From Reclinomonas americana ATCC 50394 (taxonomy: Eukaryota), in the NCBI GenBank assembly GCA_048213135.1, contig PS015010.1, positions 1,550,001 through 1,614,000 of the forward strand: a stretch of DNA of 64,000 nt, given 5' to 3'. Every line of letters starts with the position of its first letter. The first letter of the stretch is position 1. The notes under the pieces were generated by a model. It saw nothing but the letters and a program-made list of their open reading frames with translations, was not told the DNA's origin and did no database searches. Below are positions 8,705-24,324 of the stretch, piece after piece. Both the position numbers and the translations under genes were made by a program.

Positions 8705-8768
8705 ATTATCCCTTCGGAATGATAATGCCGGGACGGAACTACAAAGCGGATAACAGCTACAGGTATGG
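8705..8768. repeat. Inverted repeat arm 1 (pairs with 11440-11503)
   Basis: 61/64 identity by manual alignment; 32 bp perfect match (8737-8768 vs 11440-11471). Confidence 0.9.
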
Positions 8769-9726: not shown

Positions 9727-9951
9727 ATGCTAATATTTATTTTTTTTTCACTAGGCATTATTTGTATTTTCTTTTGCAAGTACCAAATACACTTAATAAT
9801 GAAAAAATATGCAAATAAAAAAAATTACTTTTCTCTTAATTGGAGAGAGTTTGAGAAAGAAGACATTGATCAAATAAATACTTGGAGGATAATCGCAATT
9901 GTTGCCCCTATATTCTTTACAATAGTATGTTTTGTTCTTACCTTGCTATAA
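9727..9951 (+). CDS. Small two-TM protein, candidate immunity protein for module D
   Basis: 9 bp after the toxin stop; hydrophobic N- and C-terminal helices; AT-rich. Confidence 0.65.
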   Translation: MLIFIFFSLGIICIFFCKYQIHLIMKKYANKKNYFSLNWREFEKEDIDQINTWRIIAIVAPIFFTIVCFVLTLL

Positions 9952-9981: not shown

Positions 9982-10025
9982 GTCATTTTTCTTTGTTTGC
10001 ATAAATGCAAACAAAGAAAAATGAC
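9982..10025. terminator. Perfect 21-bp-arm inverted repeat between convergent immunity genes (probable bidirectional terminator)
   Basis: gtcatttttctttgtttgcat-aa-atgcaaacaaagaaaaatgac. Confidence 0.6.
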
Positions 10026-10042
10026 ACGCTTAAAGCAATGAC

Positions 10043-10432
10043 TTACTCATATTTTTCTAATTCATTGTCAAGAAGCTTGTTAAAATCCTTGCCTTCAATT
10101 ATAAATCCTTTACCTGTTTCAGTTGGGAAAACTAAAATTTCGATTTTATTTTGGATTAATTTTGGAATTATTTCGTCTTTAAAAATATATACGTCTATTT
10201 TCTTTGAATTGAAATTAGCAAAAGCGTCATTAATCCATTGGTCTGAAAATTCTTTAAAAGGCCAAACTGGAAAGTATTTACTTCCGTCATCTTCGACATT
10301 AAGCCCATAACCATCATTTTTGTTAAAGAGGACCCATACTTCTTCAAAATCTGCTGCTCGTTTTATAAAATAGTTTAATCTTTCTGTCGAGGTTAATTTT
10401 ACTACTTTTTCGACTTCTTCTTTTGTAATCAT
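10043..10432 (-). CDS. DUF2750-like protein, candidate immunity protein for module A
   Basis: ERLNYFIKRAADFEEVWVL..FPVWPFKEF..VFPT pattern; acidic; 4 bp after the toxin stop. Confidence 0.75.
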   Translation of the reverse strand: MITKEEVEKVVKLTSTERLNYFIKRAADFEEVWVLFNKNDGYGLNVEDDGSKYFPVWPFKEFSDQWINDAFANFNSKKIDVYIFKDEIIPKLIQNKIEILVFPTETGKGFIIEGKDFNKLLDNELEKYE

Positions 10433-10436
10433 TTCT

Positions 10437-13400
10437 TTACAGTTTTATTGCTCCGGCTTTATTTTTCTTGCCTTTGTTATCGAATTTATGTTGAAGTTTA
10501 TGTAATCTCCTCAATTGAGGATGACTTTTATCATAACCATTTCCTTTCTTAGCTTCATAACCTCTCTTATGAGCCATATCATACCCGGGAGGATTTCGTA
10601 TACTTTTTCGTCGACCTCTTTTTATAGAGTTTTGTTCTTGCTGAATCCATCCCCTAATATGATTTGGTTGTTTCTGATCTTCTGCAACCTCTTTAAGCTT
10701 AGCTTGTTTCCCAGCTCTCCCGGCTCCCTTAGATGATTGTTTAACTTGCTTGAGCTCTTGTTTTACTGCTTCTTCTCCAGCCTTTTCAGAAGCATCTTTA
10801 ACTATCTTCTTCTCTAATTTGTCAACAACTTGTTTATTCAGTTGTTTAACTTCTTTTATGGCAAGAGTATTTGCCGCGTCTACAGCCTCTTTTACCGCTA
10901 ACTTTACCGATTTCTTAAAGCTCCCTAAACCTATTAACATCGTTACCTTATCCATATAATCATCCGCGGCCTCCACCCCTAACAAAGCACCTAGTGATAT
11001 TATAGAAAGTGTAAAATCTTTAGCTTTTGCATTTTTAAAAGCCTCTTCAGAATCATATGTTGCAGTTACAAAATAAACCTCATCTCCACGTTCAATCGGA
11101 TAATGTGCAACAATACTAAAAGGCCTATCATATTCTAATGTCCCGTCTTGGTTAATTTCACCTGTTTGCTCGCCAACTTGCCAAGCTGCTAGCTTAATAA
11201 CTGGTTTCTCAGGGTTGTCGGTCCAAACAAAAATATAGTGTGTTTCTTCTAGCCCATCCATGTCAATATTTTGTACTGGATTGTTGCCAGAAAAATGATA
11301 TGGACTGTACCAAGGGAACTCATCCGATAATGGATCCACACTCAAAAACCTCCCCAGCCTCGGATTATATATCCGAAATCCATAATCATATTGATTCCCT
11401 TCGCCATCAACCTCATTATCACTTTCCTTCCCATTAAATCCATACCTGTAGCTGTTATCCGCTTTGTAGTTTCTTCCCGGCATCATCATTCCGAAGGGAT
11501 AATAGTCAGTTGCTGTTACGACGTCTGCACGATAGGCGACAAACGGGCCTTCCCAGTCACCGCCGCTACCGCCCGGAGGTGCGGTTTCCGTTTCTTCTCC
11601 TGTAGGTACACAAGGAGGTACCAACCCGCATACAACCTTACGCCATACCTGTTGCTGGAGTTTTTTGTCACTTACAGTGGCGAGTACATTGCCCAGGTGG
11701 TTACTTAATTCAAAGATCTTCTCTCCTCTTGTAAAGGTACTGGTAAATCCTTCGCCAAAGTCATCATCAAGCGTTTCCGGAACCCGGGCCGGCTCCGATT
11801 CCGTGCTGATCATACCCAGGCGGCTGCTGCCATACAAATGGCACTCTTTCTGCCACACTTTTTCTCCAACTTCGTACACACTCATCACATTCCCCGAGGC
11901 ATCACGCACATACACAGTCACCTTCTCTCCCACGGTCTTGCTTACGCGGTTGCCCGAAGCGTCGTACGTGTACTGGATATCGGGGTCACCGGATTTATCA
12001 ATGGCTTTTATTTTCCCGTATACATTCCAGGAAATGGCCGTACTGCCTTCCGTAACCAGGTTACCGATAGCGTCATAAGCATAATAGCCGGGTGACTGGT
12101 TGTCTATATCAATGGTGTAGTTACCTGACGATATATGATCGGTAACATCTTTCAGCCTGTTGGTGGTTGAATAGTAATTGTACTCGAGGCTGTCCATGGA
12201 CACAGGCATACCTGCGGTGGGCGATCCTTTACGATGGTAACGTTCAATATTACCATTGGGATCATAACTCACGTATTCTTTATAATCATCCAGCGCTACA
12301 GGTGTCCAGGTATTGGTAGCCGCGTCGAGTCCTTTATAGCTCTGCATACGGGTAATCCGGTTCAGCTGGTCGTACTGGTATTTATAGAACAGTGGTAAAG
12401 TATTGTTGGTTGGCGCGTTCAGTTTCAGCAAACCGGCATTGTTTACGGTCATGGCCGCGATATTGCCGTTGTACAACGATTTACTGTCGAAGCTGATACC
12501 CGTGCCCGGCCTTGCGAACAAGCTGCTGCCACCGATCTGTTTATAATCCAGGTAATCACTGCCACCCCCGAGCTGATCATAATAATGCAGCGCAAAACTC
12601 ATGATGTCTTTAGCCGTGGTGGACTGCGAAGTGCCATCCAGGTTAATATCCTGCGCCGCGTCGAGGGCAGTATTGTTCACCCCTTTCAGCCACCCCTGCA
12701 GCGTGTAGGCATAATCCATTCCCTGCACCCGCAGCTGGCCCAGTTCTGTACGGGCCAACGGACCATGCTGGTAACAACTGTAAGCACCATCGCGTTCCCA
12801 CAGCAATTTATCCCTGCTTGTTTCTACTGATGTAATGCGGTTCTCCGCGTCGTAGTTATACCGGTGATAGAAGGCATCTTTGGCCCCGGGTTGGTAATTC
12901 ACCTGGTTCACTTTATCACTGATCAGGTCATATTCATATACAATGCGTTTGAACTGCGCATCGGCACCCACCATACCGGCCAAGCCTTTATAATCCTGCA
13001 ACAGCGTATCTACATTACCATGTATATCGTAACTGTAATAAGTGGCCGCCCGGTGCGTGCCGGCATACTTCGTATCATCACTGCCGCTGGGTTCGGTATC
13101 AAATACCTGGGTATAACTTACCCGGTTGCGCAGGTTTTGTTGTACCAGCGGGGCGGGGCTCAGTGTGGCTTCGCCGTTAAAGTAACTGACATCATATACC
13201 GTGCGGGTGACCTCTTCCTTGTTCTGCACATTAGTACTGGCACCGTTATTGGCTAACCATGCACTCAATTGTGATGGATCACGACTAATAGTTTCTGTCA
13301 TGGGGGTAGTCTGCGGTTTTTGCCCCACTTGAGTTATTCGACCAAGTTCATCGTAAATTATGTAACCATATTTATCATTGGGCGTTTGTTTTGCATTCTG

Positions 13401-13901
13401 GCTCACCACGACCCTGCCGAGCCGGTCATGCCAGAATTTACTTTCACCGGCATCGGGTGTTTTTTGTGCGATCACCTGGTTCAATGTATTGTACCGGTAT
13501 TCGGTTTCCAGGGTATGCGTCGGCGTGAGTATGTTGCTGCTCTCTGCCCCTCCGTTCCTCACATTCTGTCTTTTGGTCTTCACATTGGCCAGGAAGGTCG
13601 CGTCGGCATGTTTGGCATCCACACCTGCAGGTGGTACAGTCTTCACCAGGTTGCCGGCCTGGTCATAGTAATACAGCGTATAGTGATACTCGCTTACATC
13701 GTAGTTCACTGTAAAGCTTTCCAGGTCTTTCGCTTTCATGCACTTGTTGTAATAAGCGGTGTCAAACACATTGCGCAAACTGTCGAGGTACAACTCGTAT
13801 TTTTCCATAGCCGCGTTAAAGGCGATCTTCGGCAGGTCTTTGCAGGGGTCTTCATCCTGGGGTACGGGGGTGAATACAGGTTCAGAGAGACCGCACAGCA
13901 T
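10437..13901 (-). CDS. Orphan RHS protein (module A) with Ntox8-like C-terminal nuclease toxin
   Basis: YD repeats; ELSNHLGNV, DYYPFG, GRFLSVDP, NIDMDG; basic tip GRAGKQAKL..RGWIQQE..PPGYDMAHKRGYEAKKG..LHKLQHKFD with HxR and HxxxH motifs; no signal peptide. Confidence 0.85.
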   Translation of the reverse strand: MLCGLSEPVFTPVPQDEDPCKDLPKIAFNAAMEKYELYLDSLRNVFDTAYYNKCMKAKDLESFTVNYDVSEYHYTLYYYDQAGNLVKTVPPAGVDAKHADATFLANVKTKRQNVRNGGAESSNILTPTHTLETEYRYNTLNQVIAQKTPDAGESKFWHDRLGRVVVSQNAKQTPNDKYGYIIYDELGRITQVGQKPQTTPMTETISRDPSQLSAWLANNGASTNVQNKEEVTRTVYDVSYFNGEATLSPAPLVQQNLRNRVSYTQVFDTEPSGSDDTKYAGTHRAATYYSYDIHGNVDTLLQDYKGLAGMVGADAQFKRIVYEYDLISDKVNQVNYQPGAKDAFYHRYNYDAENRITSVETSRDKLLWERDGAYSCYQHGPLARTELGQLRVQGMDYAYTLQGWLKGVNNTALDAAQDINLDGTSQSTTAKDIMSFALHYYDQLGGGSDYLDYKQIGGSSLFARPGTGISFDSKSLYNGNIAAMTVNNAGLLKLNAPTNNTLPLFYKYQYDQLNRITRMQSYKGLDAATNTWTPVALDDYKEYVSYDPNGNIERYHRKGSPTAGMPVSMDSLEYNYYSTTNRLKDVTDHISSGNYTIDIDNQSPGYYAYDAIGNLVTEGSTAISWNVYGKIKAIDKSGDPDIQYTYDASGNRVSKTVGEKVTVYVRDASGNVMSVYEVGEKVWQKECHLYGSSRLGMISTESEPARVPETLDDDFGEGFTSTFTRGEKIFELSNHLGNVLATVSDKKLQQQVWRKVVCGLVPPCVPTGEETETAPPGGSGGDWEGPFVAYRADVVTATDYYPFGMMMPGRNYKADNSYRYGFNGKESDNEVDGEGNQYDYGFRIYNPRLGRFLSVDPLSDEFPWYSPYHFSGNNPVQNIDMDGLEETHYIFVWTDNPEKPVIKLAAWQVGEQTGEINQDGTLEYDRPFSIVAHYPIERGDEVYFVTATYDSEEAFKNAKAKDFTLSIISLGALLGVEAADDYMDKVTMLIGLGSFKKSVKLAVKEAVDAANTLAIKEVKQLNKQVVDKLEKKIVKDASEKAGEEAVKQELKQVKQSSKGAGRAGKQAKLKEVAEDQKQPNHIRGWIQQEQNSIKRGRRKSIRNPPGYDMAHKRGYEAKKGNGYDKSHPQLRRLHKLQHKFDNKGKKNKAGAIKL
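11440..11503. repeat. Inverted repeat arm 2 (pairs with 8705-8768)
   Basis: Encodes YPFGMMMPGRNYKADNSYRYG in module A. Confidence 0.9.
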
Positions 13902-13977
13902 CGGCGGGTAAGCGTGATTTTAATAATTGAACTGATTTTTTGTACGAATGAATGTTCGCATCTTTTTGCATTCATCT

Positions 13978-14046
13978 CCCCGCTTTACGCTGCTAGTCCT
14001 CGCCCTCCTGCGTCGGGCTGTGGGCTATACGCTGCAATCGGGCGTA
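13978..14046. repeat. Conserved spacer element, copy A (69 bp)
   Basis: ccccgctttacgctgctagtcctcgc-[variable]-gggctatacgctgcaatcgggcgta; also at 18495 and 22317. Confidence 0.92.
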
Positions 14047-14303
14047 AAGGAGAAAGTATGTTGTCCTTTTACAGTCATCACAAATACCCATCCTTATAAA
14101 AAGAAAATATTGATATAATATTTACAATCCATTTTTACCAGCTAATTTGATACATGAATAACAAAAAAGCCCTGTTCCAGGGCTTCCAACTATCAAATTT
14201 GATCTTTTTTGATCTCAAAATAAAACAGGAGGCCCGAAAATGCCTCCTGTAAATGCTTTATTTATTTGCCTTTGGGGAAAACCAGCTAATCTGATACACT
14301 ACC
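14047..14303 (-). mobile_element. Internally deleted IS1-family remnant with duplicated IS-end-like sequence
   Basis: ATG at 14132 reads MDCKY like the transposase start at 23082, fused to sequence resembling that gene's 3' flank (GGGTATTTG). accagctaat(t/c)tgataca occurs at 14137-14154 and 14281-14298; the outer copy reads GGTAGTG.. on the minus strand. Confidence 0.65.
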
Positions 14304-14306
14304 ACT

Positions 14307-14951
14307 TTAATTTATTTTGCTCACACTTGCAATCCACTCATTTCGACCATCCTTAGAAAGAAGATAGAAGATGCTGGAGTCCTTAGTCCACCCCATTTTT
14401 CCAAGCGGGTCTACATCCCAAGGTTCTCTCTCATATAATTTCACTTGCTCTATTTCTTGTTTGTTATTATTTAAGAATATGGCAAAAACTTGAAACTTAT
14501 CAATGTCCCAGACACAATAAATTCCAGCATAATACTTTTTATCAGGCGAGATAAAGTATTTATTATCCCGAAGCCAGGAATGCAATAGTCTTTTTTTTAG
14601 ACAGCAATTGTAAGAATCAAGTAAAGGATTGATATCCCACTTATGTATATCTGCAAGTGTCATAATTCCATTATGTAGTACCTTTAGTAACATTTCTTTC
14701 TTTTCATACTTCCCAGTTAATTTATGGTATGTATCGAAATCAAAAATTTTATTAATTACAATAACATCAATCATATCATCAATTATATCATTTTTGTTAG
14801 TTGCTTTTACTAAATTGATCACAATCTTTTTATACCCATTAGAATTATACTTATTTAAGCAACTAAGATACAATTGGGATGTAGACCATGTCTCTCCTTT
14901 TAAATTATACTCAAGCCCCTTTTCTACAGTTACAGCTATGTCTTTTAGCAT
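14307..14951 (-). CDS. Hypothetical protein, candidate immunity protein for module B
   Basis: 6 bp after the toxin stop; AT-rich; no signal peptide. Confidence 0.7.
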   Translation of the reverse strand: MLKDIAVTVEKGLEYNLKGETWSTSQLYLSCLNKYNSNGYKKIVINLVKATNKNDIIDDMIDVIVINKIFDFDTYHKLTGKYEKKEMLLKVLHNGIMTLADIHKWDINPLLDSYNCCLKKRLLHSWLRDNKYFISPDKKYYAGIYCVWDIDKFQVFAIFLNNNKQEIEQVKLYEREPWDVDPLGKMGWTKDSSIFYLLSKDGRNEWIASVSKIN

Positions 14952-14957
14952 GAAAAA

Positions 14958-17900
14958 TTATTGAATTCTTGGTAATTTGTTGCCAACAGGTTGATTTCCT
15001 GAAGAATTAGATTTTTTATATGCTCTATTTTTACCTTGCTCCCATTTCAATATTCTGTCCCTTGCGGACGTAGTACCTTTTCCCTGTATATTTTTTTTCA
15101 TAACTTCTGGCTTATATCTTTGATACCCAGCTTTCTTGTTAAGCGCAGAAACCTGCCGATTTGCTCGTGGAGATGTCCCATTTTTATTAAGTTTTTCTCC
15201 ACTTACTCCATATTTATTTACATCTTTATTTTTAGTATCCTTTATTCTATACCCATGCTGCGTCTTGTTGCTTGTTCGTGAATTTCCATTTGTCGCGGTA
15301 TTCGATTGAGTTGCTTCAGGACTCTTATTTTGAGCAGCAGTAGCCTGTTGATTAGTATTATCCTCTACAGTCGGTTTAGAAGCAGCTGCGGAGGCGGCAT
15401 CGCTGGCAGCCACTGCAGTCGCTGCGGGTGCTAATTTTTTTATAGCCCAAACAATATCGCTAGTTGCAGTGGCTACTACTCCAGTTCCATGTAACCCAAC
15501 AGCAGCTCCTGCTACGGCTGTACCACCACCTACAACAGTCCCTACCCCAGTAAGCGCCATTCCGCCTCCGGCATTTACGGCCGCTGCTCCGGCATTCATT
15601 TCTATAAAGCCTTGAAGTGCAGCAATACAATCCCCTACAATTCTACCTTGCAAATATGCCTCTCTATCGTATTCGTCTTCGTAATCATCAAGATTATCAG
15701 TTCCACCAATTCCATCACTTATACCAATTGTATTAGCATTAATTAAAGCATTAGAAATTCCACGACTAACAATTCCAGCCCTCCCAGCACCTAAATTTTT
15801 AATCGCTGTTTCTGCTTTTGCTTTAATTGATTCGAAATCAGTTTCCGAATACTCAAGCCCATCCAAATCTATTCCATCAATCGGTCTGTTACTAGCAAAT
15901 TGATAAGGAGTTAATTCTGGATAATCATCTGTAATTGGATCCACACTCAAAAACCTTCCTAATCTTGGATCATAAATCCTCATTCCGTAATCCTGCTGAT
16001 TTCCTTCTCCTTTCACATCATTGTCATTCTCCTTCCCATTAAACCCATACCTGTAGCTGCTAGCAGCAGTAAATTTTCTGCCCGGCATCATCATCCCAAA
16101 TGGATAGTAGTCATTTGCACTGATCACATTTGCTGTATAATAATCTACCAACCCATCTGTATTGCTATCCGTTTCAGTTTTGGTATCTGTGACTGTCGCC
16201 AGCACATTGCCCAAATGGTTGCCTAACTCAAAGAACTTATTGCCTCTCGTAAAGGTAGCAATATTATCCAGATGATCCACTTGGACAATACTGTTCACAT
16301 CTCTTTTTACATTAAAAATTCCCAACCGGCTACTACCATACAAATGAGCCTCTTCCTGCACCAGATGAGCCGAAGACGTTGCCTGATCATACAAACTCAT
16401 TACATTTCCGCTGGCATCCCGTACATACACCGTGGTTTTTGTATTACCTCCTGAAGTCACAGCTTTCGTGATCCGGTTACCAGTTACATCATAAGTATAA
16501 GCAATGGAAGTACCCGTTTTCGTAATGCCGGCAATTTTCCCATATACATTCCAGGTAATACTGCTGATACCTTCCGCCGCGTCTGCCGTCAGGTTACCAA
16601 TCTGGTCATAAGTATAATTATCATCTCCTTGGTTGTCGATATCCTCTGAGTAATTACCCGATGATACCGCATCTTTCACATGTCTCAAACGATTATTTAC
16701 CAGTTTACCTCCTGAGAGATTATAACCATAGGTCATATTATCCATGGTCAGCGGATTGCCACCCGCTGTTGTAGCATTACGCAGGTAGGTAAGGATATTC
16801 CCATTGGGATCATAGCTAACTCTCTCTTTATAATTATCCGTAACAGAAGGTGTCCATACGTTCGTACTGCTGTTCAATCCTGTAAAGGCATCCATTGCCA
16901 CGATCCTGTTCAACTGATCGTAACGATAACGGTACAAATGAGCATCTCCAAGTTTGGGTATATTCACTGCCATGGCCCCGATATTGCCATTAAATAAATC
17001 CTGGCCCGAAGTAGTAATCGGCGAAGGAGCAGCTATAGCCGCAAAAGGATTTGTTCCTCCTATAGGTTTATAATCACTACCAAAGTAATTCAGGCTGAAA
17101 CCAAATACATCCCTCGCTACCAGGCTTAGTCCTCCTCCCGTTTTGCCATCCCCCCCTATATCGTAAGTGCCGTCACCCACAGCCGTACTATTGACCCCCT
17201 TCAACCAGCCTGATAATGTGTACGCATAGTCCAGTCCCTGCACCTGTTGCTGCCCCAGGATGAGTCTTGATAATGGTCCATGCTTGTAGTAACTGTACCT
17301 CGCATCCTTTTCCCATATCCAGCCATCATGGCTGGTCTCCACATCGGTAATACGGTTTTCCCCGTCATAAGTATACCGGTGATAGTAGGCATCCACCGCA
17401 CCCGGCTGGTAGGCCACCTGGTTCACTTTACCGCTGATGAGGTCATAATCGTACACCATCTTCTTATACCGGTTGCCGGTACTGGCCATAATACCACTGT
17501 TGTAATCCTGCAGCAGGGTATCCACGTTACCGTGTATGTCGTAACTGTAATAGGTGGCTGCCCGGTGTGTACCGGCATATTTGGTATCATCGCTACCTGT
17601 AGGCTCGGTGTCGAATACCTGCCTGTAACTTACACGGTTACGCAGGTGCTGCTGTACCAGCGGGGCCGGACTTAATGTAGCTTCACCGTTGAAATAGCTG
17701 ACATCATACACCGTACGGGTGATCTCTTCCTTGTTCTGCACATTGGTGCTGGCACCGTTGTTGGCCAGCCATGTGGCCAGCTGCGAAGGATCGCGGCTGA
17801 TCGTTTCCGTCATGGTGGTGCTCTGCGGCTTCTGCCCTACCTGGCTGATGCGGCCCAGTTCATCGTACAGCGTATAACTGTAACGGGCATTCGCATATTG

Positions 17901-18412
17901 TTTCGCATTCTGGCTTACCACCAGCCGTCCCAGCCGGTCGTACCAGAATTTGCTTTCCCCGGCGTCGGGTGTTTCTGTGCTATTACCTGGTTGAGTGTAT
18001 TGTACCGGTATTCCGTTTCCAGGGTATGCGTTGGCGTTAGTATATTGCTGCTTTCTGCCCCACCGGCTTTTACGTTCTGCCGTTTCGTTTTTACATTGGC
18101 CAGGAAGGTGGCATCAGCGTGTTTCGCGTCCACACCTGCAGGCGGTACGGTCTTCACCAGGTTGCCCGCCTGGTCGTAATAATATAAAGTATAGTGGTAC
18201 TCGCTCACTTTATAACTCACGGTAAAGCTTTCCAGGTCCTTCGCCTTCATACACTTGTTGTAGTAGGCGGTGTCGAATACATTGCGCAGACTGTCCAGGT
18301 ACAGTTCATACTTTTCCATGGCCGCGTTGTAGGCGATCTTCGGCAGGTCCTTGCACGGATCATCATCCTGCGGTACCGGCTCAAACATAGGCTGGCTGAG
18401 GCCGCAGAGCAT
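14958..18412 (-). pseudogene. Orphan RHS protein (module B) with Tox-URI2-like tip, frameshifted near 17972
   Basis: ORFs 17915-18412 and 14958-17921 both align to the main RHS; gtttctg here vs gttttctg at 27141. Tip GNSRTSNKTQHGYRI..KYGVSGEKLNKNGTSPRANRQV..LKWEQ. Confidence 0.82.
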
Positions 18413-18420
18413 GGGAGGGT
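17100..18420 (-). repeat. ~1.3 kb near-identical duplicate of main RHS 26270-27590
   Basis: Nearly identical translation; 18024-18142 identical to 27195-27313 by manual comparison. Confidence 0.9.
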
Positions 18421-18494
18421 TGGAGGAAGTATTACTGAATGAATAAGACTATTATTTTGTACAAATGAATGTTCGCATTTTTTTGCATTCATAC

Positions 18495-18553
18495 CCCCGC
18501 TTTACGCTGCTAGTCCTCGCTGCGCTCCGGGCTATACGCTGCAATCGGGCGTA
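18495..18553. repeat. Conserved spacer element, copy B (59 bp)
   Basis: Differs from copy C by one base. Confidence 0.92.
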
Positions 18554-18799
18554 GAAAAGAATGCTCTTTATACTTTTTGTGACTTCGTAAAAACTCATTT
18601 TTAATTTTACACAAGAACCTTTATAATATTTACACTCCATACTAACTGCTAATCTGATACATCAATAATAAAAAGACCGCCTTTCAGCGGTCTTTTCCCA
18701 TCGAATAAAGATAATTCTTATAATACTCCCTTCAAAAATCCTGTTTCAGCCAAAGATTTAAACGCATTTTAAGTAAACATGCTAATCTGATACATTACC
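18554..18799 (-). mobile_element. Internally deleted IS1-family remnant with duplicated IS-end-like sequence
   Basis: ATG at 18640 reads MECKYYKGSCVK; tgctaatctgatacat at 18647-18662 and 18780-18795; outer copy reads GGTAATGTATCAGATTAGC on the minus strand; hairpin aaaagaccgc..gcggtctttt lies between the copies. Confidence 0.65.
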
Positions 18800-19260
18800 C
18801 AGTAAGTGGCATCATGCACTCATAAAAATAAAAGACTGTCGCCATTTTTTATCTTGATTAAATTAAAAAAATGGCTTGGCTTTTATTTTTATGAGTGCAT
18901 AGCGTTGTTTGCTATGTACCTTGACAAAAATTACATAGCAAACAACGCCGCCGCCCTGCACAGAAAAAACCACACACAAAAGCCATTGTACCGAACGGCT
19001 GAAAACCTTATCCACATTGACTTGCAGCCAATTTGGCATGTGCATAAATTTTTATCCTTCAAAAATTTTGTGCATAAAAAAATATTTTCTTGCTGCAAAC
19101 CGCCGAGCCGACCGAAGGGAGGCGAAGGAATAAAAAAAGCCGCCTACATTTTTTGCAAGCGGCTGAATGATTTTTTGATTTGTATTTTTTTGCTTTCTTG
19201 TCTCAGCCCAAACGAAGGAACAAAACAGAAAACCAACGGCAGCAAAACAATGTTTTATTT

Positions 19261-19668
19261 TTAATGTCTTATTGGTATAATTTCAACAGGAACTTTACTT
19301 CTCGGTCTTAAAAGAGCACTTCGCTTTATAGAAAGTAATACTTCTTGACATAACTCATAATCAGAATTATTGGTACAACTTATTTCACTTAAACTTCCGT
19401 CTTTGGCTACGATAAATTTTGCCTCAACAATATATTTCCCTTTTTTAGTGCTACTACAAAGTTTGGTAGATTTATTTAGCTGGGCTTCAATATGTCGCAA
19501 AAATGTTGAGTCTAAATCAGTACAAGTATCTTTAAATGCTGCTTTAGTGTATATTTTACTGGGTCTTCGTTCTTTGGTAATTTCTACGATAACTTGATTA
19601 CAATTAGTCTGTCCAAAGCCCTTAGCAATAAATAATATATGTAAGAAAAGTAACCTAAAGCATTTCAT
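19261..19668 (-). CDS. Exported protein with a TonB C-terminal-like domain
   Basis: Signal-peptide-like N-terminus; GKYIVEAKFIVAKDGSLSEI..ELCQEVLLSIKRS resembles TonB_C. Confidence 0.55.
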   Translation of the reverse strand: MKCFRLLFLHILFIAKGFGQTNCNQVIVEITKERRPSKIYTKAAFKDTCTDLDSTFLRHIEAQLNKSTKLCSSTKKGKYIVEAKFIVAKDGSLSEISCTNNSDYELCQEVLLSIKRSALLRPRSKVPVEIIPIRH

Positions 19669-19841
19669 TTTTAAAATATTTCAGTGTTTGTATTTTATTG
19701 AACGAACAAAATATTTTGCTATTACTCATCATCTCAATACCAACCTAAATGATTTATCTACTATCTATTTCTTAGAAAACCAACAACAAAATATAGCTTT
19801 GAAATAAAAGAAAATTATACTCCCCCTGTATAAGCCATTTT

Positions 19842-22250
19842 TCACTCTTTCTTTTTTGCTTCCTCAAGAATTTTCTTAATTTCTTCTCCATCATCATTCC
19901 CTGCATTACCTTTAAAACCTTCTGTACTAACTTCTACATCAACTTTTTTATTGGCGTTTTTTCTATAGAATCCTGCAAAATTTTTATATGCTGGATTAGT
20001 CTTTTTTACATCATCAATAGTTTGATTTTTCTTAACTGGGTTTCTATCATCCTTACTTGTTAGTTTTACTTTGCCATTTTTCCCAACTTTAGTAACTGTA
20101 GCTGAATGCTGGATATTTCCTTTATCATCTTCAAAAATAGCAACGTCTCCAGGTTTTACATCCTCTGCTTTTACTGGTGTGAATTCTGCCTTATTTTTAA
20201 AAATTTTTGAAACGTTATCACAACCTTGTCCATCTAAACCAGCAATATACAAATCAATGCCTGGGCGCAAATTCAGGGTATTGCCGTGGCAACTAGATGA
20301 TTCAGGGTTTCCCATATCAGGAAACACATATACCTTATCTCTATCTTTAAAATCCAAAAATTTTGTTTTTCCTTCATCTGCCCATTCAACATTATCAACT
20401 GTACTTTTTAACATATATCTACCGACTTCTACTGCTTGGCCATCGTTTGTATAAAAATAATATGTAGCTGCTTGATAAACCTCATTCCCTCTTTGTTCAT
20501 AAGATGCTACACCCATTGTATAAATTATATTTCCGTTCTTATCTACAAGCCAGTTGCCATTAGCATCTTTAAATTGTAGTGGACTATTAACACAAAAAGC
20601 ATAAGGCGAAACATTAGGATATTTGTCAGCATATTTATCTACACCTAACCATCGTCCTAATCTGTTATCGTAAATCCTTGCCCCAAAATCTAAATTTCCT
20701 TCGCCTGTACTGTTATCCAACTCCTTACCGTTAAACCCATAACGGTAACTTTTACCTGGTGTTTGTTCATACTTCCTACCCGGCATAGTCATACCGAATG
20801 GGTAGTAATCATTCGCACTGATCACATTTGCTGTATAATAATCGACCAAGCCATCTGTATTGCCATCTGTTTCAGTTTTGGTATCCGCAACTGTAACCAG
20901 CACATTACCCAAATGATTACCCAACTCAAAGAACTTATTACCTCTTATAAAGGTAGCGATATTATCCAAATGGTCAATTTGGGCAATGCTGTTTACATCT
21001 CTTTTTACATTAAAAATTCCTAAGCGGCTACTACCATACAAGTGAGCTTCTTCTTGCATCAGGTGAGCCGAAGACGTTCCCTGCTCATACAGGCTCATCA
21101 CATTACCACTGGCATCACGTACATATACCGTAGTTTTTGTAATCCCGCCTGTCGCAACTTCTTTAGTAATCCTGTTCCCTGCCACATCATAGCTATAATT
21201 GATCGTACTTCCAGATTTTGTAATGCTGGCAATCTTTCCATACGTGTTCCAACTGATGCTACTGATACCTTCAGCAGCATCTGCCGTGAGATTTCCAATT
21301 GCATCATACGTATAATTGTCATCCGATTGATTATCAATATCCGCTGCATAATTACCTGAGGATACGGCATCCTTCACGTGGCGTAAACGATTGTTCACCA
21401 GCTTACCGCTACTCAGATTATACCCGTAAGTAAAATTATCCATGGTTTGCGGATTTCCTCCGGCAGTTGTACCATTACGCAGGTAAGTAAGGATATTCCC
21501 ATTGGGATCATAACTAACTCTCTCTTTATAATTATCCGTAGCTGAAGGTGTCCAGGCATTCGTACTGCTGTTCAACCCGGTAAAAGCATCCATGGCAACA
21601 ATACGGTTTAACTGGTCGTACCTGTAACGGTAAAGATGTGCATCACCTAATTTAGGTATGTTCACTGCCATGGCACCGATATTCCCATTGAACAATTCCT
21701 GCCCTGATACAGTTATGGGTGTGGGTGCTGTAATAGCAGCAAAAGCACTTGTTCCACCTATAGGTTTATAATCACCACCAAAGTAATTCAGGCTGAACCC
21801 AAAGACATCCCTTGCAACAGGATTCAGTCCTGCCCCTGTCTTACCATCACCACCCATATCATAAGTACCGTCATTCACAGTTGTTGAGTTCACTCCTTTC
21901 AGCCAGCCTTGTAAAGTATAGGCATAATCCACACCCTGCACCTGCTGCTGACCTAAAATGGTTCGTGCCAGCGGTCCATGTTTATAATAGCTATATCTCG
22001 CATCTTTTTCCCATAGCCACCCATCATGGCTTGTTTCCACATCCGTAATCCTGTTCTCTGCATCGTACGTGTACTTATGATAGAACTCATCGGTAAAGCC
22101 TGGCTGGTACGCCACTTTGTTCACCTTACCACTGATGAGATCATAATCGTATACCATCTTCTTATACCGGTTACCGGTGCTGGCCATAATACCGCTGTTA
22201 TAATCCTGCAGCAGGGTATCTACATTGCCGTATATGTCGTAGCTGTAATA
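19842..22250 (-). CDS. Orphan RHS protein (module C) with a Cys/His papain/NlpC-like tip
   Basis: Homology to the main RHS starts near 22250 (NYSYDIYGNVDTLLQDYNSGI; first ATG 22187); core GRWLGVD..FKDANG; tip SSCHG..VKPGDVAIF..IQHSATV. Confidence 0.8.
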   Translation of the reverse strand, partial: YYSYDIYGNVDTLLQDYNSGIMASTGNRYKKMVYDYDLISGKVNKVAYQPGFTDEFYHKYTYDAENRITDVETSHDGWLWEKDARYSYYKHGPLARTILGQQQVQGVDYAYTLQGWLKGVNSTTVNDGTYDMGGDGKTGAGLNPVARDVFGFSLNYFGGDYKPIGGTSAFAAITAPTPITVSGQELFNGNIGAMAVNIPKLGDAHLYRYRYDQLNRIVAMDAFTGLNSSTNAWTPSATDNYKERVSYDPNGNILTYLRNGTTAGGNPQTMDNFTYGYNLSSGKLVNNRLRHVKDAVSSGNYAADIDNQSDDNYTYDAIGNLTADAAEGISSISWNTYGKIASITKSGSTINYSYDVAGNRITKEVATGGITKTTVYVRDASGNVMSLYEQGTSSAHLMQEEAHLYGSSRLGIFNVKRDVNSIAQIDHLDNIATFIRGNKFFELGNHLGNVLVTVADTKTETDGNTDGLVDYYTANVISANDYYPFGMTMPGRKYEQTPGKSYRYGFNGKELDNSTGEGNLDFGARIYDNRLGRWLGVDKYADKYPNVSPYAFCVNSPLQFKDANGNWLVDKNGNIIYTMGVASYEQRGNEVYQAATYYFYTNDGQAVEVGRYMLKSTVDNVEWADEGKTKFLDFKDRDKVYVFPDMGNPESSSCHGNTLNLRPGIDLYIAGLDGQGCDNVSKIFKNKAEFTPVKAEDVKPGDVAIFEDDKGNIQHSATVTKVGKNGKVKLTSKDDRNPVKKNQTIDDVKKTNPAYKNFAGFYRKNANKKVDVEVSTEGFKGNAGNDDGEEIKKILEEAKKKE

Positions 22251-22316
22251 ATTGGTCGTTAAATTATAAAAGAGTTATTTAGTACGAATTAATCTTGCCT
22301 TTCTAATTTTACATCT

Positions 22317-22375
22317 CCCCGCTTTACGCTGCTAGTCCTCGCTACGCTCCGGGCTATACGCTGCAATCGGGCGTA
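22317..22375. repeat. Conserved spacer element, copy C (59 bp)
   Basis: ccccgctttacgctgctagtcctcgctacgctccgggctatacgctgcaatcgggcgta. Confidence 0.92.
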
Positions 22376-22419
22376 GAGGGAATACAACCTGTTCATCCGT
22401 AAAATTCATCAAATACCCT

Positions 22420-23082
22420 TCACTTATACCAGAAGTAAATCTTTAAACAGGCTTCCAGCATCCGGATACTCCGACTGAAACAGATCGCTTTTCTATTCAT
22501 CCTTTTCAATGAATTTCTAATCCCCAGATTCATTCGTTCAATAATATTAGTTCCAAAACAAAAGCAACGCTGAATTGAAGAAGGAATAAGGCTTGGGTAA
22601 ATGTTAAACCTGTCGGTGTATATACGCCTGGCACCATTTTGAATCAGGTTATCCGTTATCTTACTAATAACTAGTTTGCTTCTTGAACCAATGACAAAAT
22701 CAGCAACAATCCGGGTTTTGCGATCCAACGCATAAGTTACATACAAAGGATTTGTCTTACCATTACTGACGACATAGGTATAGAGTTCATCAATCTCAAA
22801 TGTCCTTTTACCAAAATCAGTTAAAGGGCAGCCTAATTGACAAGAGACTTTCAAAATCCTTCGCCTGACTGAAGTAGCAGCAAGATGCAGAAACCGGGAG
22901 ATTGAATTAATACTCATGCCCCCCTTTGTAAGCCGTGCTATATCACCATCAAAAGCAGCTGTTCTCTGACAATAGGTATAGCTTAAACGTTAGTATCTGT
23001 GTCATTGTTTACAATAAAATTTTTGAACCTGTTTGTAAAACCCTTTCCGGATACGGGTCTTTCCACAATATTTACAATCCAT
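22420..23082 (-). pseudogene. IS1-family DDE transposase pseudogene (221 codons, two in-frame stops)
   Basis: MDCKYC..FYCKQ* zinc ribbon (TGA at 23002-23004 in place of the 4th Cys; TAA at 22990-22992), HTH (MSINSISRFLHL), FEIDELYTYV, IYTD, TNIIERMN..RKAICFSRS. Confidence 0.88.
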
Positions 23083-23255
23083 AGGTAACAATTGGCGCAT
23101 CTGCATCGAGCCAACTCAATTGCAGTCGCATTTCCAGCAAAAACGCTTTAAAATGAATATAATAAACAGTATAATAATACATACAAAAAAAGTCGCTGAT
23201 CATTTATAATCAACGACTTCCGAATATTTATTTTCCGCAGGTGATAATTGGCGCA
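23083..23255. repeat. Direct-repeat pair upstream of the IS1-like transposase
   Basis: aggtaacaattggcgca (23083-23099) vs aggtgataattggcgca (23239-23255), 15/17; hairpin aagtcgctgat..atcaacgactt lies between them. Confidence 0.65.
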
Positions 23256-23347
23256 CGCCCCCTTCACCTGATTAGATACATTAACCAAAAACTCAAATAT
23301 GTTAATAGAATTTGTAAATTGCCGCTCAGATCTTTAATAAAAACAGC

Positions 23348-23877
23348 ATGAAGGATATCAATTCCACTAATACAAATACTGAAGAAACTATTAACCCACT
23401 TCCTAATGACGATCCTAAAATCACTGCAAGTGGAGATATTATTAAAATTAGTCCTTTATTTTTTGACTACAACTTACTTATGGCCTTCGTACTTTTTCTA
23501 ATTGGCCTTTTCATCATTTATGCCTATCCAAATGAAGACAACAAAACGAATGTAGTAATTTGCATAATACTAATGCTTAGTGCAATAGTCTCAATAATTA
23601 ACCAAGCAAAGAATAGTAATACTTTAATAATTAATACCTCCCAAAAAACAATTCAGATTATTCCTAACATCTTAATTTCTTTATTCTTAAAAGAAAAAAA
23701 ATACAATTTAATGAAATAAAAAAAGTAAGCTACATCACAAATGGCTTCTGGCTTGCATATAGAAAGAGCATTATTGTGTTTACTTTAAACGACGAAAGAA
23801 AAGTCAGTGTTCTTAGAATACAAAATGAAGACAATGCTGGCATATTCGCTCGATTCTTACTTTCTATAATTAAGTAA
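23348..23877 (+). pseudogene. Two-TM membrane protein, frameshifted at an A8 tract (23694-23701)
   Basis: Track ORF ends at 23719. Adding one A gives KEKKIQFNEIKKVSYITNGFWLAYRKSIIVFTLNDERKVSVLRIQNEDNAGIFARFLLSIIK*, ending at 23877. Confidence 0.65.
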
Positions 23878-24324
23878 TTGCAGAACTTGGTTCTTTTCCT
23901 CGAGTGCCTTTGTAAACCCAGGAAGTTTTATTAGCGATTGATCATAAAAATATAAGGCAGAGTCATAATTGCCATTTTTTCTATAAATGACCCCTATATT
24001 TAAGTACGCCGCATGGCTTTCAGAATAATTTCTCATGATTGCCTTTCGATAATCAGAAATAGCTCCTGTATCATTTAAAAGCATAGATTTACAATAGCCT
24101 CTTTTGAAATAATATCCTCCTTTTGTTGAGTCCATCACGATGAGATCATTATATAAAGAGATTGCATCTGAATATTTGTCATTTTGGTAATAGTTATTAG
24201 CTCTTTCAATAAGCTCTTTTTTAGAACTTCCAGTATCCAGATATCTATTGCCCCCTTTGTCATCAGTTGAATTATCACAACTGACAAAAAGAATTCCTAA
24301 CACATACATAAATTTAGCCTTCAT
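23857..24324 (-). CDS. TPR lipoprotein, candidate immunity protein for the main RHS toxin
   Basis: Lipobox FVSC; TPR patterns YYFKRGYCK..AISDYRKAI and AYLNIGVIYRKNGNYDSALYFYDQSL; 13 bp after the RHS stop. Confidence 0.8.
   Translation of the reverse strand: MKAKFMYVLGILFVSCDNSTDDKGGNRYLDTGSSKKELIERANNYYQNDKYSDAISLYNDLIVMDSTKGGYYFKRGYCKSMLLNDTGAISDYRKAIMRNYSESHAAYLNIGVIYRKNGNYDSALYFYDQSLIKLPGFTKALEEKNQVLQLLNYRK

Follow-up and report, generated by a model that had tools for sequence, protein, structure and literature searches.

Decayed IS1-family elements joined to Flavo-1 hairpins precede the co-oriented orphan RHS toxin modules of a moss-associated Bacteroidota bacterium

In the 64-kb window analyzed here (the whole stretch of DNA under study), which belongs to a moss-associated Bacteroidota bacterium with RHS toxins of the DUF6443 type, three co-oriented spacers (A, B and C) on the minus strand are each followed by an RHS toxin/immunity module truncated at its 5' end (Table 1). 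The spacers share one set of parts in a fixed order, namely a decayed IS1-family element, a Flavo-1 hairpin and a short tail, and it is probable that this junction moves with each cassette of an array that was built by homologous recombination. The initial annotation had read the spacers as a repeating cassette junction, possibly created by an integron-like, IS1-derived mechanism that captures or adds toxin-immunity modules. What stands of that reading is that the copies are non-random and that a spacer marks the boundary before all three co-oriented orphan modules, whereas the capture mechanism was not borne out, given known parts and dead transposases. The parts are ordinary and were most likely carried along in cassette shuffling rather than forming a novel gene-capture machine.

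Table 1. Coordinates of the RHS array and its spacers in the window
Feature	Coordinates	Strand	Remarks
Full-length RHS polymorphic toxin gene, 3036 aa	24338..33448	-	DUF6443 N-terminal domain, YD repeats, LysM in C-terminal tip
TPR protein directly 3' of main toxin, candidate immunity gene	23857..24324	-	TPR_2 9.6e-13; putative role, from position after toxin
Spacer C	22256..23286	-	Near full-length IS1-family element, then Flavo-1 hairpin, then 55-nt tail
Spacer C parts	IRL-like 23286-23267; repeats 23254-23235, 23098-23079; terminator hairpin 23221-23188; transposase pseudogene 23082-22420	-	
IS1-family transposase pseudogene	22420..23082	-	Single frame of 220 codons; codons 27 and 31 are in-frame stops
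Flavo-1-class hairpin, copy C	22309..22378	-	RF01705 29.1 bits, E 0.007; own model 71.3 bits
Orphan module 1	19842..22255	-	RHS core from main-gene coordinate ~26722, then divergent C-terminal tip
Orphan module 1 ORF, 781 aa	22187-19842	-	
Small ORF 3' of orphan 1, 135 aa, candidate immunity gene	19261..19668	-	Candidate by position only
Spacer B	18427..18799	-	Internally deleted IS1 remnant, then Flavo-1, then 62-nt tail
Spacer B parts	IRL 18799-18777; terminator 18697-18670; inner repeat 18662-18648; ATG 18640	-	
Flavo-1-class hairpin, copy B	18556-18487	-	
Orphan module 2	14958..18426	-	RHS core from main-gene coordinate ~27597, Tox-URI2 tip
ORF 3' of orphan 2, 214 aa, candidate immunity gene	14307..14951	-	
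Spacer A	13910..14303	-	Internally deleted IS1 remnant, then Flavo-1, then 62-nt tail
Spacer A parts	IRL 14303-14281; terminators 14250-14225, 14187-14165; inner repeat 14155-14141; ATG 14132	-	
Flavo-1-class hairpin, copy A	14049-13970	-	Loop 10 nt longer
Orphan module 3	10437..13909	-	RHS core from main-gene coordinate ~27591, Ntox8 tip (ORF 13901-10437)
DUF2750 protein 3' of orphan 3, candidate immunity gene	10043..10432	-	

The overall arrangement is that of other Rhs/polymorphic-toxin orphan arrays, in which an rhs gene of full length and its immunity gene are followed by co-oriented 5'-truncated rhs fragments, each comprising core homology, a distinct toxin tip and a small downstream ORF. 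The core of orphan module 2 is split between two overlapping ORFs (18412-17915 and 17921-14958), the 214-aa ORF behind it stops 3 nt short of the left end of spacer A, and the 135-aa ORF behind orphan 1 had no Pfam match. Repeat and hairpin-model searches found no spacer after the DUF2750 gene, at the end of the array. A fourth orphan-like ORF, which is convergent (8719-9717, plus strand, Rhs_assc_core), is without such a spacer. Transposable-element fragments inside Rhs-type orphan arrays have been noted previously, in passages of PMC3150448. The array described here differs in that the same composite of IS1 remnant, Flavo-1 and tail precedes every co-oriented orphan, in that homology begins exactly at the IS terminus, and in its Bacteroidota host with DUF6443-type RHS; we found no description of such a stereotyped junction in titles, abstracts and a few passages of the literature.

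All of the reported spacer parts were present on the minus strand, three times in the same order. Each conserved half of what the initial annotation called a 59-bp element occurs exactly three times in the window, versus 0.03 and 0.00 expected from shuffles, and the transposase start ATGGATTGTAAATATT also occurs three times, versus 0.07 expected. The 15-nt repeat ATGTATCAGATTAGC is found on the minus strand twice in A (14299 and 14155, 144 bp apart) and twice in B (18795 and 18662, 133 bp apart). The repeat pair of C is worded differently and is 156 bp apart, and a single A/B-like copy is located at the far left of that spacer. In all three spacers the repeat pair encloses terminator-like hairpins, and RHS homology begins ~60-70 bp past the 59-bp element.

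The identification of an IS1-family element was based on the pseudogene in spacer C, which matched PF03400 (56.1 bits) and, over positions 1-199, NF033558 (98.9 bits, versus a cut-off of 100). Among its 74 homologues every named one is a Bacteroidota IS1 transposase, and the closest sequence other than itself is 53-57% identical. The repeat pair, terminator hairpin and M(D/E)CKY start correspond to the usual left end of IS1-family elements in Bacteroidota, as judged from related sequences. Plasmid IS1 elements of Riemerella (repeats 156 bp apart, hairpin 5894-5924) and Empedobacter (repeats 145 bp apart, hairpin 3155-3202) likewise have outer and inner left-end repeats around a hairpin, within the 133-156 bp spacing of the window copies, and the ORF comes next; the Emticicia IS1 has a 169-bp tandem duplication at the corresponding place. 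The outer repeats of the window align with those of these elements, as well as with the terminal repeat at the right end of an IS1-like element from E. coli. They begin GGTA(A/G)TG, a start that single-ORF Bacteroidota IS1 elements share (GGTA(A/G)TGT) along with the DDE_Tnp_IS1 domain and zinc-finger start, and the terminal GGTA is missing from all inner copies.

Unlike those elements, the spacers have no intact ORF, detectable right repeat or target duplication. Copy C had been said to keep the whole transposase frame, but its 220 codons are interrupted by two in-frame stops. A and B are, as reported, internally deleted to less than 100 bp: what is left of the gene is ~16 nt at its 5' end and ~25 nt at its 3' end, the distance from the ATG to Flavo-1 is 83 and 84 nt, respectively, versus 704 nt in C, and the deletion in A maps to 23066..22444 of C. 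The transposase is dead in all three copies, and no intact one was found in the same context in the window. There was no inverted-orientation repeat match anywhere in the window, none of 21 local alignments for a right inverted repeat was better than 18 of 200 shuffles, no target duplication was found at the spacers, and no integrase, tyrosine recombinase or other transposase was found among the large window ORFs scanned. These results speak against an IS1-derived capture machine, as does the ordinary nature of the parts, including the 59-bp element.

By sequence and predicted pairing, this element belongs to the Flavo-1 class of hairpins (Rfam RF01705; Weinberg et al. 2010, PMC2864571), a dispersed generic repeat. 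All three copies match the full length of the model, at 28.7-29.1 bits (E 0.007-0.009), which is below its gathering threshold of 42 bits. They share with the motif a pseudo-symmetric hairpin with GCAGCGTA(A/T)AGC on both arms and covarying pairs, and differ in a G+C-rich inner stem that is common to a large metagenomic subclass. Pairing is preserved in 99.1% of cells, with compensatory changes at 6 of 12 pairs, and the covariation score was 0.362, whereas shuffles gave 0.106 (0 of 500) and sliding the pairing gave no more than 0.121. A relaxed two-motif pattern identified 53 metagenome loci, of which 29 (26 distinct) have the element in common, and a copy above the gathering score was held by 3 of 16 of these loci in an Rfam scan. 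No IS1 transposase or RHS protein is encoded at any of the 53 loci, no IS1 transposase lies within 2 kb of the 29 elements, and the ORFs flanking Flavo-1-class loci (n = 48) are housekeeping genes, such as those for RF-1, IMPDH, DnaN and sigma-70. All three Flavo-1 copies of the window are placed at cassette junctions, where they start ~40 nt past the transposase stop and IS body end. None of three intact plasmid IS1 elements has an adjoining Flavo-1, and the hairpin is probably just outside the IS. The likeness to an integron (IntI, attI, attC) is confined to the picture of co-oriented cassettes parted by a structured repeat: no tyrosine recombinase was seen in the window ORFs scanned, the hairpin is a repeat that elsewhere lies between housekeeping genes, and cassettes with 1.2-1.6 kb of homologous RHS core are, unlike those of an integron, suited to general recombination.

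The claim that the spacers do not reflect random IS insertion was upheld, in that the copies are not independent. A and B were copied from one ancestral junction, based on transposase remnants of the same size, a common RHS breakpoint (main-gene coordinate ~27597; ~27591 for A) and a single continuous alignment of 75.8% over 1.5 kb (17182-18674 versus 12667-14167), which spans the RHS core, tail, hairpin and remnant up to the inner repeat. The start of RHS homology is stereotyped for A and B but not for C, which enters the gene ~870 bp further in. This duplicated junction, together with the Flavo-1 loci that lack IS1 and RHS genes, largely corresponds to the outcomes that the initial annotation had named as contrary to capture. 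All three copies are homologous from the transposase stop to the hairpin, and their homology starts no more than 1-2 nt from the left terminus of the IS, beside left flanks among which we found no likeness. Shared left flanks would be expected from pure passive duplication, and so at least some joins appear to have been made at or through the IS end; the pattern fits either such joining or recombination between IS copies. Given its other RHS entry position and differently worded repeats, a single ancestral junction may be insufficient to account for C along with A and B.

We propose that a junction of IS, Flavo-1, tail and RHS fragment formed once or twice in an ancestor and has since been the leading edge of every orphan toxin/immunity cassette. 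Homology for recombination would be supplied by the RHS core at one edge of the tip-plus-immunity unit and, at its opposite edge, by the IS remnant, and the array may have grown through C-terminal displacement, unequal crossing-over and uptake of foreign cassettes. General homologous recombination would suffice for this, without any enzyme for site-specific capture. That the left flanks are unrelated could be explained if related IS copies landed 3' of different immunity genes and then recombined with the IS remnant of the array. For polymorphic toxins, the route accepted in the literature is recombination with standalone cassettes, according to passages of PMC3482391 and PMC3150448.

Parts of the spacers are more alike than a neutral reference. 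Fourfold-degenerate sites in the RHS core adjoining A and B are alike at 32 of 60 positions, compared with 20/23 in the outer repeat, 36/45 from the inner repeat to the ATG, 62/78 in Flavo-1 and 52/62 in the tail (Fisher p 0.0002 to 0.004), while the between-repeat stretch and transposase remnant are not above that level. Such an excess is unexpected for a decaying passenger, unless there was gene conversion or the RHS core had a differing history. The conserved parts may have been retained for local functions, such as insulation from read-through and possibly driving the module, or alternatively for binding an IS1 protein encoded elsewhere in the genome. These four parts and the exact start of homology at the IS terminus leave room for a regulatory or IS-end-mediated role. 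Compatible with growth by homologous recombination would be a spacer domesticated as an insulator and retained for that predicted function whatever its origin, which we view as possible though doubtful: a terminator would block upstream read-through, the promoter region of the IS left end and the tail would drive or modulate the orphan along with its immunity gene, and the Flavo-1 hairpin would act in RNA stabilisation or processing. The strong terminator-like hairpins on the coding strand of all three spacers are consistent with such roles, as are the uneven conservation and the ATG with which orphans 2 and 3 each open 10-15 nt past the junction, and orphan immunity genes are reportedly expressed in another system (passages of PMC3150448). 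However, gene conversion among the copies could instead yield the conservation, the promoter scan used a sigma-70 consensus ill-suited to Bacteroidota, and the -7 motif of Bacteroidota was not clearly matched in the spacers. In addition, Flavo-1 matches in Flavobacterium psychrophilum lie in sense or in antisense orientation to transcripts, and many of them are not transcribed, as stated in PMC9723704.

An active process, in which each unit of IS remnant, RHS fragment, toxin and immunity gene is inserted beside an existing copy to give a co-oriented array, would involve transposase that an intact IS1 relative supplies in trans to the intact left ends or IS26-like conservative recombination. 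In the translocatable units of IS26, and in amplifiable units flanked by IS1 of which the r-determinant of plasmid NR1 is an example, direct IS repeats alternate with cargo, the IS is intact at both ends, and active transposase or RecA acts on identical repeats. The units of the window could similarly loop out and re-enter via recombination between IS copies, one of which, co-oriented with the others, bounds each module; the terminal start of homology beside three unrelated flanks, the conservation of outer and inner terminal repeats beyond the neutral level, and an Emticicia plasmid IS1 directly 3' of a WHH-toxin/SUKH-immunity pair also favor this process. We nonetheless judge it unlikely, as all IS copies here are dead and have diverged (59-93% by segment), none of the three has a recognisable right end, and none lies past the last module, where it would close the array. 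Moreover, the common right-hand junction and deletion of A and B are explicable by recombination without transposase, a polymorphic toxin adjoins only one of four Bacteroidota plasmid IS1 copies, and IS1 elements are not known for conservative targeting of the IS26 type. It is very improbable that an IS or miniature derivative repeatedly targeted Flavo-1 hairpins already located before orphan modules. Some IS elements do target REP sequences or hairpins, and the IS body ends ~40 nt ahead of Flavo-1 in all three copies, but the homology between transposase stop and hairpin indicates descent rather than re-insertion, and neither the metagenome loci, the intact plasmid elements nor a search for target duplications gave any sign of such targeting. 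We give almost no credence to an artefact in which repeats of a metagenome-derived window were stitched in false order. The best matching sequence sets are moss-metagenome runs, whose unitigs break off at Flavo-1 repeats and at IS-end repeats; however, the short repeated stretches are not identical but 75-93% alike, and independent unitigs span 13556-14002, 13988-14307 and 18771-21641 with no or 6 differences. Furthermore, B-type and C-type junctions are both present in a second organism (runs coded X3/X4) at ~96% identity, with 15 differences over 381 nt and 21 over 523 nt.

The initial annotation had described a spacer repeated ahead of each of three truncated RHS modules, and this description was upheld: the parts of the spacer recur three times, on the same (minus) strand and at counts far above those in shuffled sequence. 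Each half of the 59-bp element occurs exactly three times in the 64 kb (0.03 and 0.00 occurrences expected from shuffles), and the transposase start has three occurrences in the window (0.07 expected). A 15-nt repeat is present in two copies in spacer A (144 bp apart) and in two copies in spacer B (133 bp apart), all on the minus strand, while spacer C has its own repeat pair, 156 bp apart, together with a single A/B-like copy at its left extreme. All three spacers have a terminator-like hairpin between their repeats, and RHS homology starts 60-70 nt past the 59-bp element. The spacer is composed of an IS1 remnant, a Flavo-1 repeat (the 59-bp element) and a tail, the 55-62 nt between the Flavo-1 hairpin and the RHS core, and nothing within the window is able to transpose it.

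Positions of the features of the RHS array within the window
Feature	Position	Strand	Remarks
Main RHS gene	33448->24338	minus	full length
Spacer C	23286->22256	minus	ahead of orphan 1
Spacer B	18799->18427	minus	ahead of orphan 2
Spacer A	14303->13910	minus	ahead of orphan 3
A/B-type left-end motif of C	23286-23267	minus	IS1-like
Own-type left-end motif of C	23254-23235	minus	IS1-like; recurs right before the ATG
Stretch of C deleted in A	23066..22444	minus	from local alignment
RHS breakpoint of A and B	~27597	minus	main-gene coordinate, same for both
A-B alignment, RHS core end	17182/12667	minus	B/A
A-B alignment, inner repeat end	18674/14167	minus	B/A
Palindrome directly left of the IS terminus of B	18814-18948		A+T-rich; 89 nt, 79% self-complementary, plus 47-nt extension
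Overlap of the two ORFs of orphan 2	17915-17921	minus	7 nt
Fourth orphan-like ORF	8719-9717	plus	convergent to the array
Small ORFs accompanying it	9727-9951 and 10005-10310	plus	
Palindrome at the end of the array	9982-10025		44 nt, 95% self-complementary
Orphan tip pieces found in run X5	16609-16764, 19732-19892, 20127-20391		0-1 differences
Departure point of an X5 contig	13943		inside the tail
Contig joints at repeats	14303->23216, 18799->25179		

The window is of Bacteroidota type, with a SusC/SusD pair, a Bacteroidota ECF sigma factor, a LolA3-family protein and a DUF6443 RHS protein of 3036 aa. The sequencing runs sharing most of its words are moss metagenomes, and no RNA runs were among the runs that matched it. 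Along the minus strand a 2618-aa PA14 protein and a LolA3-like gene are followed by the full-length RHS gene and a TPR gene, and then by three RHS modules truncated at the 5' end; every module has a tip of its own and, downstream of it, a small ORF. The tip of orphan 1 has a weak CHAP match, that of orphan 2 matches Tox-URI2 (1.1e-12) and that of orphan 3 Ntox8 (3e-17). The small ORFs behind every orphan tip, among them a DUF2750 ORF directly after the Ntox8 tip, are candidate immunity genes by position. Core homology between the orphans and the main gene (84% over 1652 nt, 77% over 1237 nt and 74% over 667 nt) stops ahead of the tips. By all features examined, the locus is an Rhs orphan toxin/immunity array.

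The 165-aa ORF of copy C matches DDE_Tnp_IS1 (PF03400) at 6.3e-15 and 56.1 bits (cut-off 24.1), and is related to IS1 transposases from Bacteroidota, with 53-57% identity at most. The NCBIfam IS1 model NF033558 aligns end to end with copy C at 98.9 bits (cut-off 100), a score taken on the frame with X in place of two stops. The claim that C keeps the whole transposase frame holds in so far as the gene runs from its ATG through 220 codons in one frame, but there are in-frame stops at codons 27 and 31; in A and B, 83-84 nt separate the ATG from the hairpin. Judged by its protein and its left end, the IS of the spacers is an IS1-family member that falls short in three respects: an intact frame, found in none of copies A, B and C; a right end, with no inverted copy of the terminal repeat within the window and, in 21 comparisons by local alignment, no right inverted repeat better than 18/200 shuffles; and a target-site duplication, with none seen in the flanks of A, B and C. 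When the genome contigs were scanned with a transposase pattern, 149 stretches matched and none was a relative by tblastn. Spacer C also has two differing IS1-like left-end motifs side by side, which may reflect a nested or recombined IS. A microRNA-like Rfam match of the palindrome left of B was spurious.

The left end was compared with four Bacteroidota IS1 copies on plasmids (Empedobacter, Riemerella, Emticicia and Bergeyella). In the Empedobacter element, a hairpin is enclosed by an outer repeat GGTAGTGTTCCAAATG... and its inner copy, spaced 145 bp, and the ORF comes next; the Riemerella element has the same layout with 156-bp spacing and a perfect hairpin of 13 bp; the Emticicia element has a tandem duplication (99% identical) of 169 bp at the left-end position; and the Bergeyella copy is truncated. 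The outer repeats of the window, GGTAGTGTATCAGATTAGC (A) and GGTAATG... (B), align with the outer repeats of the plasmid elements and also with the right terminal repeat of an E. coli IS1-like element, and the left terminal repeat of the window can be aligned with its counterparts in three other IS1 elements. The terminal GGTA is missing from every inner copy. Since the plasmid elements share this layout, the repeat pair, hairpin and M(D/E)CKY start, initially read as features of the RHS junction, are instead the ordinary left end of such IS1 elements. That a doubled left-end repeat around a hairpin is a common trait of Bacteroidota IS1 elements is an added observation. One of the four plasmid copies lies beside a toxin/immunity pair: between 30522 and 40268 of plasmid NC_018743.1 of Emticicia oligotrophica, the order runs from a SprB/fn3 protein of 2719 aa, whose tip is a WHH nuclease, to a SUKH immunity gene, the IS1 immediately after it and finally a 1846-aa Ig_7 protein.

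The 59-bp element was identified as a hairpin of the Flavo-1 class (Rfam RF01705). Its window copies score 28.7, 28.7 and 29.1 bits (E 0.007-0.009) over the full model (1-76), below the Rfam gathering threshold of 42 bits, and no RF01705 match at gathering level was found in the whole window. No exact match to a 22-mer or 20-mer of the hairpin was found in genome or metagenome contigs. A relaxed pattern, in which the two 12-nt arm motifs alone were required, retrieved 53 metagenome loci, of which 24 are simple tandem repeats and 29 (26 distinct) have the whole element, with near-identical inner loops. In three of the 16 scanned loci a copy exceeds the gathering score (48.1-51.4 bits): in two cases it is the pattern-matched element, and in the third a second copy within the same locus. 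A continuous series of homologues leads in this way from the window copies to accepted members of RF01705. On the 29 sequences the hairpin has 12 pairs, with 99.1% of 348 cells paired and compensatory changes in six pairs; because a motif required on both arms had served to select the sequences, the invariant pairs are favoured and without weight, and it is the outer and inner stems that carry it. The covariation score was 0.362 versus 0.106 in shuffles (0/500 reached it) and at most 0.121 when the pairing was slid. With a model built from this alignment, the window yielded the three known copies (71-73 bits) and no others, and the Emticicia plasmid yielded none. Folded singly, stretches of 124-131 nt showed no significant stability (z -1.2 to +1.0), so that the hairpin is detectable by comparison only. 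Other Rfam matches at the E-value level (potC, MIR7502, leader peptides) were far under their thresholds and were dismissed.

The proposed tie between this element and RHS genes stands within the window, where all copies are at junctions, but not beyond it, as neither an IS1 transposase nor an RHS protein is encoded in any of the 53 metagenome loci. The 48 ORFs nearest to the metagenome elements are housekeeping genes, and in the 26 distinct loci the hairpin lies between such genes. These neighbors, and the lack of IS1 and RHS in the 53 loci, show that the element is a dispersed intergenic repeat, a Flavo-1 relative under the Rfam threshold. It was also considered as a part of the IS and rejected as such: because none of the three intact plasmid IS1 elements has one adjoining, the hairpin is probably outside the IS. 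In an E. coli IS1 relative the right repeat ends 35 nt past the stop codon, and in copy C the hairpin begins 42 nt past the transposase stop. In the accessible text of a 2010 paper Flavo-1 is merely listed (PMC2864571), and in the part seen of a Flavobacterium psychrophilum transcriptome study its matches are sense or antisense to transcripts, with many untranscribed (PMC9723704). This motif, without a function since 2010, has a large G+C-rich subclass that escapes the Rfam threshold.

With regard to descent, A and B align continuously at 75.8% from the RHS core to the inner repeat, across the tail, the hairpin and the transposase remnant, and they break off from the main RHS gene at the same coordinate; on this alignment both copy a single junction. 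ATG and hairpin lie 83 and 84 nt apart in A and B, versus 704 nt in C. The deletion of A was placed on C by local alignment, the global alignment being ambiguous, and B was too diverged for direct mapping. What C has in common with A and B is limited to the outer repeat, the gene's first 16 nt and last ~25 nt, the hairpin (63/68) and ~45 nt of the tail; C joins RHS ~870 bp further in. Passive duplication of one insertion, which the initial annotation had set against its own reading, fits the shared junction of A and B; it may not be enough for C, which joins RHS elsewhere, and would not predict the unrelated left flanks. C could be a second insertion, or a deletion beside the same insertion. 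A second organism, seen in runs X3 and X4 (which look like a single data set filed twice), carries both a B-type junction (15 differences over 381 nt) and a C-type one (21 over 523 nt), and almost none of the orphan tips, so the junctions are older than the cassette set of the window. In run X5, a bioreactor metagenome, one contig departs from the window sequence inside the tail of spacer A, which hints, too weakly to build on, that the tail and RHS fragment exist elsewhere without the hairpin.

Two observations argue against a purely passive passenger. Homology among A, B and C begins within 1-2 nt of the IS terminus, which in A is 3 nt past the stop of the upstream ORF, and their left flanks have no similarity to each other or to the rest of the window; passive copying of one insertion would have brought the left flank along. 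Furthermore, relative to the fourfold-degenerate sites of the adjoining RHS core (32/60 identical between A and B; for comparison, 83% between orphan 2 and the main gene), A-B identity was raised in the outer repeat (20/23, Fisher p 0.004), from the inner repeat to the ATG (36/45, p 0.004), in the Flavo-1 hairpin (62/78, p 0.001) and in the tail (52/62, p 0.0002), and not in the stretch between the repeats (72/123, p 0.31) or the transposase remnant (39/64, p 0.25), values to be read in light of the short segments, the inflation of identity by gapped alignment and a recombination history that may differ in the RHS part.

We consider it probable that the junction is carried along with the cassettes and that the array grows by general recombination. 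Each cassette would have a travelling junction as its front edge, with homology supplied by the RHS core on one side of the tip-plus-immunity unit and by the IS remnant on the other. Recombination is the accepted route for polymorphic toxins in the portions of the literature consulted (PMC3482391; PMC3150448), and the IS would act within it as portable homology. Related IS copies would have landed downstream of different immunity genes in donor genomes, as exemplified by the WHH-SUKH-IS1 order of the Emticicia plasmid, and recombined with the remnant of the array inside the shared left 170 bp, which would account for the unrelated left flanks and allow the deletion to be inherited from the recipient. 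The conserved parts may supply each module with a terminator, a promoter region and an RNA hairpin; such a regulatory role, compatible with growth by recombination, is a tentative suggestion. A promoter scan with a sigma-70 model was set aside as unsuited to Bacteroidota. Alternatively, they may bind an IS1 protein encoded elsewhere. On that basis the defective left end and the Flavo-1 hairpin would bound mobile RHS units, and an IS1 protein supplied in trans, still binding the conserved outer and inner repeats, would join or excise at the terminus whole units of IS remnant, hairpin, RHS fragment, toxin and immunity gene, akin to an IS26 translocatable unit with toxin cassettes as cargo. We regard this as quite improbable; if true, it would give Flavo-1 its first functional context.

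An active mechanism of the IS26 type is unlikely: the copies are co-oriented as such a unit would have them, but all are defective and no IS copy lies past the last module. Composite transposons and IS26 units have functional direct IS copies on both sides of the cargo, whereas the copies here are defective. Targeted re-insertion of the IS is highly improbable. An assembly artefact is scarcely credible, the B-type and C-type junctions being present in a second organism. Many contig joints at the repeats, with sides of 22-40 nt and 80% likeness, were rejected as evidence of rearrangements, and joints with sides of 22-82 nt and equal likeness do not qualify as circles. The array is not an integron, and the integron-like reading of the initial annotation was abandoned: an integron has an IntI-type tyrosine recombinase by the array and attC sites at the cassette ends, whereas no integrase, recombinase or further transposase was found among the ~48 window ORFs scanned against Pfam or NCBIfam (with part of the small ORFs among them), and the hairpin is of the Flavo-1 class, found elsewhere between housekeeping genes.

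Cassette gain and reordering in polymorphic-toxin arrays are usually ascribed to recombination in the conserved gene body, and what provides homology or a joint beyond the immunity gene is seldom evident. In this array that side is taken in every case by the same dead IS1 and Flavo-1 hairpin. We found no published description of a stereotyped IS1-plus-Flavo-1 junction in RHS arrays in titles, abstracts and a few passages of the literature. If it is seen in more genomes, IS remnants would be portable cassette borders, perhaps insulators, in the toxin arsenals of Bacteroidota; if the plain reading holds, they are tidy, unsurprising IS debris moving along with recombining cassettes.

Several further features of the locus were noted. 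Orphan 2 is frameshifted within the RHS core into overlapping ORFs of 165 and 987 aa, and its first part is 96% identical to the main gene in protein and 83% at fourfold sites. The fourth orphan-like ORF starts with Rhs_assc_core (TIGR03696, 1.2e-12), has a tip without a Pfam match and is directly behind the ECF sigma factor gene, with no IS1 remnant or Flavo-1 hairpin ahead of it. The palindrome separating the last minus-strand immunity gene from the converging plus-strand ORFs is probably a two-way terminator. Run X5 contains pieces of the orphan tips, and 94% of its contigs aligned to the window continue into unlike sequence; apparently these toxin tips sit in other contexts elsewhere.

Among the metagenome loci, five (L017, L030, L044, L052 and L056) have a Flavo-1 copy of the 'CCCGAT' class after a metallophosphoesterase gene and 45-51 nt upstream of the gene for peptide chain release factor 1, in the same direction, a conserved position that could be that of a 5' leader. 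The RHS fragment had no blastn match on plasmids, and a protein-level search found RHS genes on 14 Bacteroidota plasmids. The one inspected, Fulvitalea axinellae NZ_AP025321.1, has two full-length RHS genes and no IS1 junction. Its order (giant PKD-domain protein, ~250-aa protein, ~3100-aa RHS, small ORF, second full-length RHS) resembles the overall layout of the window, which suggests a conserved delivery locus in Bacteroidota.
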